In this document: positions 3,705-63,250 of the stretch, piece after piece | Position numbering within the stretch: position 1 is the stretch's first letter | How the letters are laid out: the number at the start of each line of letters is the position of its first letter | Source of the DNA: Bdellovibrionales bacterium | Lineage (GTDB): Bacteria > Bdellovibrionota > Bdellovibrionia > Bdellovibrionales > JAMPXM01 | Length of the DNA: 64,000 nt | NCBI GenBank assembly: GCA_043739185.1 | Contig: JAYUEN010000029.1 | Location: 1-64,000, forward strand | Reading direction: 5' to 3' | Position numbers and translations under genes: made by a program | Notes under the pieces: generated by a model | Databases searched by the model: none | The model's input: the letters and a program-made list of their open reading frames with translations, nothing else | Told to the model about the DNA's origin: nothing

Positions 3705-4121
3705 ATGAAAGCGTTATTACTGGTTAGTGGATTTTGTTTTTTAGCAATGACAAGCTTTTCAGCACAGGCAGCGGATGCTCTACCAAAAGGATCGAAAGTG
3801 GGCTTTGTATCGCCAAAAGATGGCGCCACTGTCACCGCAAAATTTACTGCTAAATTTAGTGTTGATGGACTTAAAATTGAAAAAGCTGGCGCCGTAAAGC
3901 CCGGCACCGGCCATCATCATTTGATCATTGACGGCCCCGGCACTCCCGCGGGACAAATTGTTGAAAAGGATTCAACTCATATGCACTATGGCAATGGCCA
4001 AACTGAGGCAGAATTAACTCTTACTCCTGGCAAACATACTTTGACTCTTCAGTTTGCTGATGGCGCTCATATGTCCTACGGTCCTGAAATGTCGAAGACC
4101 ATCACGATTACAGTAAAATAA
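3705..4121 (+). CDS. Secreted DUF4399-family protein
   Basis: AGGAGG RBS before ATG 3705, signal peptide, GHHHLIID / HYGNGQTE / PGKHTLTLQFADGAH motifs. Confidence 0.8.
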   Translation: MKALLLVSGFCFLAMTSFSAQAADALPKGSKVGFVSPKDGATVTAKFTAKFSVDGLKIEKAGAVKPGTGHHHLIIDGPGTPAGQIVEKDSTHMHYGNGQTEAELTLTPGKHTLTLQFADGAHMSYGPEMSKTITITVK

Positions 4122-4128
4122 GGAATTC

Positions 4129-4200
4129 GGGGGCCGGCACACTGTGGTCGGTCAACTGAAACGGCGACCGCTAACCGATTCGGTAGCGGCTGCCTTGGAT
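4129..4200 (+). repeat. Structured GC-rich intergenic element, copy A
   Basis: GGGCCGGCA...AACTGAAACGGCGACCGCT...GCGGCTGCCTTGGAT; shares blocks with 4926-4997 and 14694-14780 and contains two hairpins. Confidence 0.7.
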
Positions 4201-4206
4201 CACTGC

Positions 4207-4503
4207 TCACTTCATCTTAGTCAATTTATAAATCATCCCGCCCAATTGATCTGCCAATTTAAATGATTCTTTTTGCTCAAGTATCGTCAATAAGCTTTGC
4301 ACCTCTTTCAGTGAAGCATACGAAATTGAGTAAAATCTTGCTCGCTCTTTTGAGCTTGGCCGTGCTGATCCTTCGCTTAAATTTAAAACAACACTTAGGC
4401 TTGCCCTTTCAAGCTGATCTTTGAGATAGGCCTTCGCCTTAATGTGTTCGCATCTTTTGTAAAGCTCAAGTGCCATTTGGTACGAACGAAAATCTTTCAA
4501 CAT
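4207..4503 (-). CDS. Four-helix-bundle protein (23S rRNA IVS-protein / TIGR02436 / Avd-like), copy 1
   Basis: 98 aa from ATG 4503; FRSYQMALELY...LKDQLERASLSVVLNLSEGSAR...RFYSISYASLKE family signature. Confidence 0.9.
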   Translation of the reverse strand: MLKDFRSYQMALELYKRCEHIKAKAYLKDQLERASLSVVLNLSEGSARPSSKERARFYSISYASLKEVQSLLTILEQKESFKLADQLGGMIYKLTKMK

Positions 4504-4504
4504 A

Positions 4505-4613
4505 TTTGTATCCTTTCGGTTTTCGCAAATTCGATTTTGAATTTCGCGGTTTCGCTTGCGACTAAGAACCGCGAAATTCAAAATCGAATTTGCGAAAACC
4601 GAAAGGATACAAA
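4505..4613. repeat. Perfect 47-bp inverted repeat (4505-4551 / 4567-4613) with 15-nt spacer
   Basis: TTTGTATCCTTTCGGTTTTCGCAAATTCGATTTTGAATTTCGCGGTT and its exact reverse complement, checked base by base. Confidence 0.97.
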
Positions 4614-4910
4614 ATGCTAGAGAATTTTAGAAGTTACCAAATGGCACTTGAGCTTTACAAGAAATGCCGAACACAGAAATTGCCAAGATTCCTCAAAGAC
4701 CAGCTTGAAAGGGCCTCAAGTAGCATTGTCTTAAATCTAAGTGAGGGCTCCGCCCGAACTTCGAAAAAAGAGCGAGCAAGATTTTATGTGATTGCATTTG
4801 CTTCGCTTCGTGAGGTGCAAGCTTTAATTGAGATGGAGGAAAGCCTTAAAGATTTGTTTCCAATTGCAGATAAATTGGGTGCGCATTTGTATAAACTGAC
4901 GCGAAATTAA
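4614..4910 (+). CDS. Four-helix-bundle protein (IVS/Avd-like), copy 2
   Basis: 98 aa from ATG 4614; same signature; about 63 of 98 residues identical to copy 1 by manual alignment. Confidence 0.9.
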   Translation: MLENFRSYQMALELYKKCRTQKLPRFLKDQLERASSSIVLNLSEGSARTSKKERARFYVIAFASLREVQALIEMEESLKDLFPIADKLGAHLYKLTRN

Positions 4911-4925
4911 GAAAGAGAAACATCA

Positions 4926-4997
4926 GGGCCCGGCAAACGGGCCGCTGATAACTGAGACCGAAACGGCCAACCGCTGCGGCTGCCAGCTGCCTTGGAT
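4926..4997 (+). repeat. Structured GC-rich intergenic element, copy B
   Basis: GGGCCCGGCAAAC...AACTGAGACCGAAACGGCCAACCGCTGCGGCTGCCAGCTGCCTTGGAT; same orientation as copy A. Confidence 0.7.
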
Positions 4998-5007
4998 TTT
5001 AGATTTG

Positions 5008-5787
5008 TTACCACTTCATCGAAATCGGAATCGATGTAATATCCTTGATCTCATGCTCATCCACTTCAATACCATCGCCGGGATGATTGTCTCGCAAGAG
5101 CTTAACTGATTTTAAAACCCAATTCTTTGGCCAACTTTGACCCATATTTTCAAAATGAAAACTGACGCTGGATTGATCATAGTTGAGATCCATATCTGAG
5201 GGTCGCTCATTTAAAATTTTATTCACTGGAATACTAATTAAGGAAATCTTGTTTAAGTCAGCGCTCACTTTGCAGGGCCCTTCTACTCGCAGAGTGGGAA
5301 TTTCTCCACTGGCAGCAATGCCTTCCGCCTTAAAAGTTAAAGTTACCCGCTCATAGAAGTCACACGCGAAAATCCTTCGATTCCCTTCGCCTTTGGTCAC
5401 AAAATGCCCAAGCTCAATCGAGACTCTTCCATTTTCATTTGTAATATTAGCTTCTTCAATCAGTCGTCTTTGTGAACGCATTTTGAGAGCGCTACCTTCG
5501 AGTTGAGAAAAATCAAAAACTTTACGAATGGCCGCAGGATTACGATTTTTTTCAAGAATTTGAGAATTTGAGATGAAGATCACGCCGTCCCAAGATTGCA
5601 TTTGAGAATACACTCCAAAGAGTGCGGCAAAACCAAAAATTATGAGTGAAAAAAGAATCTTATTTTTCAAAACCTCTCCACAAGAGACATCGTTCTCCCT
5701 ATGGCTATTATCGGCATTTTGGGAACAGACCCTTAGAAAGCACTTAAAAAAAACTGTCTCGGCTTGAGACAGTTTGAAATTCAGCAC
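5008..5787 (-). CDS. Hypothetical membrane-anchored protein (true start probably the TTG near 5670 after GGAGAGG)
   Basis: Long ORF with an N-terminal hydrophobic segment; the ORF's 5' extension overlaps a terminator and a promoter motif. Confidence 0.7.
   Translation of the reverse strand: MLNFKLSQAETVFFKCFLRVCSQNADNSHRENDVSCGEVLKNKILFSLIIFGFAALFGVYSQMQSWDGVIFISNSQILEKNRNPAAIRKVFDFSQLEGSALKMRSQRRLIEEANITNENGRVSIELGHFVTKGEGNRRIFACDFYERVTLTFKAEGIAASGEIPTLRVEGPCKVSADLNKISLISIPVNKILNERPSDMDLNYDQSSVSFHFENMGQSWPKNWVLKSVKLLRDNHPGDGIEVDEHEIKDITSIPISMKW
5708..5735 (-). promoter_or_regulatory. Sigma28-like promoter
   Basis: TAAG-N16-GCCGATAA on the minus strand, just upstream of the likely start. 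Confidence 0.45.
5745..5775 (-). terminator. Intrinsic terminator after gshA
   Basis: AAACTGTCTC/GAGACAGTTT 10-bp stem followed by a U-tract on the minus strand. Confidence 0.75.
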
Positions 5788-14670: not shown

Positions 14671-14693
14671 GGCCGAACCGAAGCCGTTTAGAC

Positions 14694-14780
14694 GGCAGCC
14701 GCAGCTGTTGGCTGTTTTTCTGTATCAGTCGCAGTTTTTAGTTTCGGTGACCGAAGCCAGATACCGGTTTGCCAGGCCCC
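14694..14780 (-). repeat. Gene-free copy C of the GC-rich intergenic element
   Basis: Minus strand reads GGGGCCTGGCAAAC...ACTGATACAGAAAAACAGCCAACAGCTGCGGCTGCC, matching both ends of copy B. Confidence 0.7.
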
Positions 14781-14781
14781 G

Positions 14782-62721: not shown

Positions 62722-63200
62722 ATTTCGTAATGCAGGCGAAGCGAGCAAATCGATACAGGTCCCCGATCGGAATTAAAAGCCGGATGTTGCACATATTGAA
62801 AATCACCGGTCATATCCAAAGCTTTTGTAATATTAAAAAGATAATAAATTTCGGCAATTTCTTCAGGCGCATAGTTCAACTTTCCGTCCCCAATCAGAAA
62901 TCCGATACCTCCAGCTGAAAGATAGTCTCGATGATCTTGGCTCAAACCATTGATTAAAAGCGCAAAGGCTAAATTATCTGTAGGCCTACGCCATGAAGTT
63001 CCTTTCAAACTTAATCCGAAGCTCAGCGATTGGTCGATTTCAGTAAAATTCCAGGTTTCAGTCTTTCCGTCATCCCAAGAAGCTCTTAAAAATCCGCCCC
63101 ATTCGCTACTAAAGTTTTGTTCTGAATTGATGCCCAACCCGTACTTAATACTTAAGACGCGGGCCTTGGTGATGTCCATATTGTACGCCGGCGGAATGCC
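62718..63200 (-). pseudogene. C-terminal fragment of an OprB-family carbohydrate/metal porin
   Basis: KYGLGINSEQ, DGKTETWNFTEID, GDGKLNY and PAFNSDRGPV..LRLHYEI motifs; no signal peptide or N-terminal part. Confidence 0.7.
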
Positions 63201-63250
63201 CGACTCAGAAGTCTTCCAGATTTTACCAACTAAAAAACGAAAGAATCCAT

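Follow-up and report, generated by a model that had tools for sequence, protein, structure and literature searches.

A divergent pair of four-helix-bundle genes between C-N-G repeats in a Bdellovibrionales genome: a probable member of a mobile family without a transposase of its own

Introduction

Proteins of the four-helix-bundle family PF05635/TIGR02436 are widespread, and to our knowledge the DGR helper Avd is their sole characterised relative. We know of no catalytic role for the fold. In the stretch of Bdellovibrionales DNA analysed here (64,000 nt, the window), two genes of this family diverge from a long hairpin and are enclosed by direct repeats, between two host genes that converge on them. 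The locus raises the question of what such a cassette is, whether it moves and, if so, by what means.

Genomes and definitions

The source genome of the window is called G000 and the contig carrying the window copy C29; G001, G002 and G003 are congeners. All genomes compared are fragmented assemblies, in which shared hairpins can cause mis-joins, and completeness is 97.65% for G000 and 88% for G002. FHB denotes a four-helix-bundle gene, F1 and F2 are the two paralogue clades, and a unit is one complete C-N-G repeat. Units were counted with flank profiles over the whole of G000, halves being counted apart among the 158 matches. A sequence-only model, R1, was trained on G000 units and scored over 41 genomes. 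ISL3 ends were scored by alignment against a 99% background. From the surveys of hairpin arms and arrays, 12 of 28 relative loci were omitted as apparently redundant. Papers are cited for their available passages.

Anatomy of the window copy

The features of the locus, and one further repeat in the window, are as follows.

3705..4121, + strand: host gene DUF4399, outside the element (Pfam)
4122..5007, no strand: whole insertion, 886 nt, bounded by the stops of the converging host genes
4126..4200, + strand: repeat A, a complete phased C-N-G unit (unit HMM; R1 E 3.5e-8)
4207..4503, - strand: FHB1 (F1 clade), 98 aa, PF05635/TIGR02436 (HMM, tree, dN/dS)
4505..4551, no strand: left hairpin arm; its - strand has the ribosome-site motif of FHB1
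4552..4566, no strand: polar hairpin loop, 15 nt, reversed in G003:C165
4567..4613, no strand: right hairpin arm, with AAGGA at 4603-4607 ahead of the FHB2 start
4614..4910, + strand: FHB2 (F2 clade), 98 aa (HMM, pLDDT 94 model, fold match 2GSC)
4922..4997, + strand: repeat B, a second complete unit, direct to A (unit HMM; R1 E 1.9e-10)
5008..5787, - strand: host gene for a conserved hypothetical protein of 259 aa, outside the element
14671..14781, - strand: solo gene-less unit directly after the COX15/CtaA stop (unit HMM; R1 E 2.4e-15)

The two hairpin arms (4505-4551 and 4567-4613) are 47 nt each and 100% identical, and the folding z of the hairpin is about -16. Each arm end consists of an AAGGA motif resembling a ribosome site and the start of one FHB gene. 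FHB1 and FHB2 are 65% identical. Repeats A and B lie in direct orientation, agree at 52 of 75 positions (69%) and have a 12-nt end that is an exact repeat; repeat A holds 12 CNG motifs, mostly 6-7 nt apart. A preliminary description of the window, made from the sequence, had the layout right: a divergent FHB pair around a perfect 47-bp inverted repeat, bracketed by direct repeats, both genes of 98 aa, and an insertion of about 870 bp between convergent host genes, which are DUF4399 and the 259-aa ORF with 886 nt between their stops. Every motif that it listed as common to A and B was located. Its repeats are real but are not private to the locus: A and B belong to a genome-wide family, which has three R1 matches in the window (A, B and 14671-14781).

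The 259-aa host ORF has no Pfam or NCBIfam match. Over positions 4000-5100, Rfam returned only hairpin-driven matches of miRNA type, all below gathering scores, and no rRNA. A scan for sigma-70 promoters and terminators gave counts at chance (1 against 1.8 and 2 against 1.4).

The FHB proteins

Both proteins exceed the family cut-offs in HMM searches, as the proposed four-helix-bundle assignment had it: FHB1 and FHB2 score 60.3 and 56.2 bits against a PF05635 cut-off of 33.8, and 62.3 and 57.9 bits against a TIGR02436 cut-off of 24. Among the matches returned, the closest relatives with a name carry the labels Bdellovibrionales, Oligoflexia and Bacteriovoracaceae. The structure model of FHB2 has four helices (pLDDT 94), and its best fold match is 2GSC (Xcc0516; TM 0.84), followed by 2RLD and then by Avd (4DWL/8UB7), with which it aligns at TM 0.67-0.68 and 11% identity. 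Xcc0516 is described as a homopentamer in the available part of PMC4990558, an RNA stem-loop is touched by each of the five protomers of Avd, which grasp RNA bases (10.1101/2023.10.23.563531, as far as available), and the homology of Avd to the FHB family is stated in PMC10053308. The predicted complex of F1 with F2 scored 0.00, with a mark of 0.34, and counts neither for nor against a complex.

Across the sampled members of the phylum, the F1 and F2 genes form separate groups with similar sub-branching; the F1 group has a support of 93/90, and the inner F1 and F2 clades are starred. Where computable, the dN/dS ratio is 0.02-0.12, and between copies inside G000 it is about 0.02-0.03. FHB1 and FHB2 are old paralogues, both under strong purifying selection, and judging from the tree their split predates the genus. 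The simplest explanation of such selection on dispersed copies would be that the proteins promote the spread of the copy that encodes them; it could instead reflect a benefit to the host.

Insertion polymorphism

The preliminary description had pointed to the DUF4399/hypothetical junction as a place to look for empty sites. The site is empty in the congener G002, where the same host stops lie 3 nt apart (contig C423), against 886 nt in G000. G003 is uninformative there, since the junction coincides with the ends of both its contigs, and G001 has no match to either host gene. Further empty sites were found in G000 for the cassettes at G003:C165, G002:C17 and G003:C198, and in G003 for the cassette at G000:C215 (42 nt). 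When 12 congener cassette sites were mapped to G000, six were without a detected unit and the other six held a unit, a partial unit or a phased array, five in the same orientation and one in the opposite; the baseline for this comparison is 158 units per 3396 long ORFs in G000, and a thirteenth, ambiguous site (G002:C300) was set aside. The site of the G000:C155 cassette, behind a gene that resembles tpiA, holds a solo unit in G002 and a deleted, ISL3-ended remnant in G003. Each of these copies is in the sequence style of its own genome, so shared sites may be collapsed old insertions, repeated targeting or conversion.

The window unit is an insertion, dispersed and polymorphic, and it is highly probable that this copy belongs to a mobile family. 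Further copies have the same leader hairpin and the same flanks, for which the preliminary description had suggested a search. The rival view of an ordinary vertical gene pair, born of a local inverted duplication and flanked by repeats by chance, could appeal to the 65% identity of the genes and to their purifying selection. It is excluded by the empty G002 site and by the many copies at unrelated loci, an F1/F2 split apparently older than the genus also stands against it, and we give it next to no weight.

Cassette copies and the repeat family

G000 has nine FHB-bearing loci. Two are intact pairs (C29 and C215), and the remaining seven are internally deleted, frameshifted or cut. FHB matches number 12 in G000, 17 in G002 and 15 in G003, with none in G001. 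The flank profiles found 158 unit matches in G000, mostly gene-less, against none in a locally shuffled genome, and only 2 of the 158 lie inside ORFs. Of the 154 units that were scored, 52 start no more than 30 nt from a stop on their own strand, and 30 finish no more than 30 nt from a stop on the opposite strand; 71 of the 101 units that could be classified are downstream of a gene that reads into them. Intergenic phased chains of at least nine CNG number 82 in G000, and 77 of these are on units.

R1 matches occur in 3 of the 41 genomes (at least 89 in G000, 85 in G002 and 72 in G003), which are kin, and there are none in the congener G001, which also has no FHB match. Among these 41 genomes, R1 thus found the repeat family only in those with many close FHB matches. 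Because R1 was built from G000 units, its absence from other genomes partly reflects divergence.

Two architectures are seen. In the first, a full unit stands on either side of the pair (the window, G003:C165, G002:C17); in the second, the C215 type, the pair lies between a left half and a right half, and copies with ever larger internal deletions form a series that ends in solo units. The flanks of G003:C165 are nearly identical and each is the only match of the other in G003, so direct flanks are made or homogenised within the element. Neighbouring unit pairs 200-1600 nt apart number 12 and enclose FHB loci in seven cases and unrelated host-like genes in five.

The repeat at 14694-14780 had been likened to the single repeat that excision of such a copy would leave. 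The site of this solo unit (14671-14781) is without it in G001, G002 and G003, and the eight best matches of the unit include neither A nor B; it is therefore an independent insertion and no scar. The more general idea that the genes are lost to leave one repeat stands in part, in that gene-less repeats lie at 6 of 12 congener cassette sites. Recombination between A and B would not be the only route; the one visible in G000 is internal deletion of the half-flanked form. No B-to-A circle or empty-site joint was found in the contigs of four DNA runs from one study, and contigs drop rare forms.

Few intact coding copies, many dead copies and about 150 gene-less miniatures form the pattern of a master/miniature mobile family. 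The window pair is likely a rare protein-coding master of the repeat family.

The C-N-G pattern

Units carry C-N-G mostly every 6-8 nt. The C and G are conserved at 0.93, the middle base at 0.56 and the other columns at 0.71 (16 motifs in 56 units). In 36 units, RNAalifold and pair counts gave no covariation and no consensus structure (-0.33 kcal/mol). The left and right halves of a unit are loosely complementary: 80.6% of cells pair, which greatly exceeds the slid controls and is no better than the pairing of shuffles (251/500). A left-right hairpin in which N.N mismatches are free would also accommodate the conserved C and G.

Of 93 FHB gene rows from relatives, which are partly redundant through duplicates and kin, 67 have a phased CNG chain after the stop, against 2 of 80 host ORFs; the other 26 FHB rows have no significant array. 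By eye, three single FHB genes with arrays (L021, L027 and L038) adjoin the 3' ends of tRNA-like genes on the opposite strand.

The hairpin and its loop

In 31 of 34 divergent-pair rows, the arms are 18-47 bp long with few or no mismatches. Arm sequences vary among copies, and they do so in concert: 49 changes are on both arms against 6 on one arm, in nine ungapped and non-independent comparisons, of which the three most diverged overstate joint change. The loop is polar, 11-15 nt long and better conserved than the arms. A like loop is found in opposite orientations in five pairs of copies (window/G003:C165, G003:C304/C124, L113/L116, L117/L118 and G002:C219/C368); in single-gene relatives, by eye, the loop mostly keeps a single orientation with respect to the gene. 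Long arms, such as those in the window, make mis-assembly possible. The contig over the loop (4522-4596) has a depth of 4.5 against about 11 in X1, with its orientation not assignable. Template switching is reported to perfect inverted-repeat arms (PMC5941160, in the part available) and to invert spacers (PMC8604942, likewise), so loop flipping can be passive.

At L061 (G002:C300:268-1377), two F2 genes form an inverted pair (identity 91 of 97 aa, dS 0.34) with inverted flanks. Its two sides map to different G000 contigs, as from two cassettes recombined through the hairpin or from a mis-join.

Comparison with known systems

The window element lacks the defining features of an IVS, of REPIN/RAYT and of a DGR, and the window copy lacks those of an ISL3 MITE. 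The 23S rRNA IVS (S23p, PF05635, in Coxiella and Leptospira; Xcc0516) resembles the cassette in protein family and fold, and also in its short tandem repeats by the ORF and its sporadic distribution, as far as the available text of PMC4990558 goes. However, the IVS lies inside rRNA and the cassette between protein genes. The flanks of the IVS are inverted and form a stem around the ORF, whereas A and B are direct; in copies with a left half, a pair and a right half the ends could pair, but no covariation is seen. Unlike the IVS, the cassette has two divergent old paralogues around one hairpin and a large family of gene-less repeats. Coxiella S23p is described as decaying, whereas the cassette genes are under purifying selection.

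REP and REPIN-RAYT systems share with the cassette some 150 short, intergenic, lineage-specific repeats at gene ends and a rare repeat-flanked coding locus. The flanked gene is an HUH nuclease in REPIN-RAYT and a four-helix bundle in the cassette. In the available part of PMC6006769, the REPIN/RAYT hallmark is a short hairpin with the tetranucleotide GT[AG]G at its foot; cassette units have a phased C-N-G pattern and neither this foot nor a covarying stem. With ISL3 MITEs/tIS (mobile insertion cassettes), one cassette subfamily shares ISL3-like ends and a perfect 9-bp duplication, but the window copy and most units are without both ends and duplications. Avd resembles FHB2 in fold and is a basic pentameric barrel that binds nucleic acid and helps a mobile system; the RT, template repeat and variable repeat of a DGR are all absent from the cassette locus, and G000 has no RVT_1 match. 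Repeats homogenised by template switching are like the cassette in their perfected arms (PMC5941160) and inverted spacer (PMC8604942), to the extent that these sources are available, and differ from its conserved polar loop, the turnover of its arms and the ribosome site on each arm. In the literature covered, which took in few subscription journals, no description of the cassette or of FHB-tied arrays outside rRNA was found.

A possible mechanism of spread

Our preferred reading, held tentatively at a probability of roughly 0.45, is that the cassette is a transposase-less master whose ring-forming proteins bind C-N-G arrays and aid a nuclease or recombinase acting in trans in copying the element to gene ends. 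The reading draws on the insertion polymorphism, the multi-copy dispersal and the deletion series down to solo units, together with the co-occurrence of repeat and cassette, the purifying selection and the concerted change of the hairpin arms. By analogy with 2GSC and Avd, FHB proteins may form pentameric rings. Such rings might bind the phased C-N-G arrays as single strands and recruit or position the cutting or recombining activity, and the DNA bounded by the repeats would then be copied to new gene ends. An FHB protein would in this way benefit the spread of its own copy. In host read-through transcripts, the hairpin may hide both ribosome sites and so silence translation. Correction of the arms and flipping of the loop would both proceed through template switching during replication.

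A bolder version is doubtful. It holds that PF05635 proteins are themselves the mobility factors, that a C-N-G-reading ring spreads the cassette and its approximately 150 miniatures, and that the invertible 11-15-nt loop is a switch of paralogue expression that needs no recombinase. Were the spread driven by FHB proteins, the system would be REPIN-like but would depend on a protein other than an HUH enzyme. The FHB genes here come with a candidate ligand in the C-N-G array, with empty and filled sites, with intact and dead copies, and with 150-copy miniatures that track the genes. A role for FHB proteins outside DGRs and an IVS-like spread without a transposase can thus be tested in binding and mobility assays.

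Other sources of mobility

The preliminary description had called the cassette a mobile or RNA-based element and a self-contained spreading unit with no transposase or RT in cis. The lack of both enzymes in cis at the window cassette is confirmed, and insertion, dispersal and mobility are borne out. Self-containment is in doubt, one subfamily having moved with ISL3 ends. The RNA route would be without its enzyme, because there is no RT family match in G000 or G002. RVT_1 has no match in G000, G001 and G002 and one in G003, where L235 (G003:C64:1293-1985), the sole match among the four congeners, lies in a 523-aa open frame. IS110 (PF02371) was rejected as a common mobiliser, with no match in G000 and G003 and two each in G001 and G002.

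The cassette and solos may instead be passengers of a non-autonomous transposon derived from ISL3 (MITE/tIS), copies of the window type having lost their ends. G000 has five PF01610 matches, and units have outer ends similar to the end that stands ahead of the C405 transposase; likeness to the left end in 20 of 158 units and to the right end in 31 of 158 exceeds the 99% background. An intact cassette at G003:C304 has both ends (0.74 and 0.78) and a 9/9 target duplication, and a duplication with at most one mismatch is found in 2 of 10 double-ended elements against 0 of 90 cross pairs. However, both ends pass in only 4 of 158 units, 8 of the 10 double-ended elements have no clean duplication, and the window, C215 and C155 copies are at background for both ends; at the window copy, the end scores are 0.22 and 0.17 against a 99% background of 0.36 and 0.39, and there is no target duplication. 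G002 has at least 85 unit matches but no PF01610 match (the assembly is 88% complete), whereas G001 and G004 carry ISL3 but no units. For seven of 11 ISL3 ends, the distance to a unit is at most 55 nt, while 1.1% of random positions lie within 150 nt of one, so targeting of the repeats by ISL3 can account for a capture that came second. ISL3 seems to use the repeats as targets and to have picked up one lineage, and an origin of the whole family from it is unlikely. Rather improbable is an RNA-level, IVS-like element, tolerated because read-through transcripts fold back and are cut by RNase III, with the arrays as processing signals and with spread by ordinary recombination and horizontal transfer. 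It would suit the Coxiella 23S IVS, which has the same protein family and short tandem repeats and is excised by RNase III (PMC4990558, available part), the downstream position of 71 of the 101 classifiable units and the mostly uniform loop orientation, by eye, in single-gene relatives. Against it, the cassette is not set in rRNA, the units lack a consensus structure (-0.33 kcal/mol) and RVT_1 has no match in G000, G001 or G002; passive recombination also fails to explain entry into non-homologous sites such as the 3-nt empty site.

An HUH transposase of the Y1 type might also act on the units in trans, as in REPIN/RAYT, with the FHB pair as cargo. The copy number, size and post-stop position of the units are REP-like. 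G000 has 11 Y1_Tnp genes, of which three lie no more than 700 nt from a unit (p 0.018); Y1 is present in 19 of 21 FHB-positive against 10 of 20 FHB-negative genomes, kin among these not being independent, and it alone among the tested enzyme families is present in G000, G002 and G003 and absent from G001. Against this, of 19 Y1 loci three have units on one side and none is enclosed by them, no unit is near any of the eight Y1 loci in G002 and G003, and the sole G003 Y1 groups with a G000 gene flanked by a different, 46-copy repeat. The unit consensus has no GT[AG]G foot and no covarying stem, and 26 other genomes have Y1 without an R1 match. We regard this explanation as quite improbable, and the preferred reading remains that of ring proteins assisting an activity in trans.

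Several ISL3 and Y1 copies were seen along the way. ISL3 has an 8-bp target duplication, and duplications of 8 and 9 bp were read at two ISL3 copies. One G000 copy (C116:51400-51805) sits, with an 8-bp duplication, inside a tandemly repeated region beside a tRNA-like sequence. ISL3 ends lie beside or inside units at C188:45834, C196:96, C342:99, C387:89, C452:977, C181:99 and C405:9948 in G000, and just inside the left end at C405:9948-9990 and C452:977-1010 is a 9-mer that we take to resemble a DnaA box. At 63190-63247 (- strand) of the window, an ISL3-like left end is joined to the first half of a unit, truncated. Eight Y1/HUH copies of about 179 aa that are 88-95% identical (L041-L047 and L049, on G000 contigs C31, C113, C156, C167, C356, C224 and C298) have a common leader and no obvious shared right end, and form an expanding non-IS200 Y1 family. 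A different Y1 gene, L040 (G000:C386:67300-68000), has a second repeat on its flanks, the 21-nt core of which is present in 46 copies in G000; this gene is likely a RAYT.
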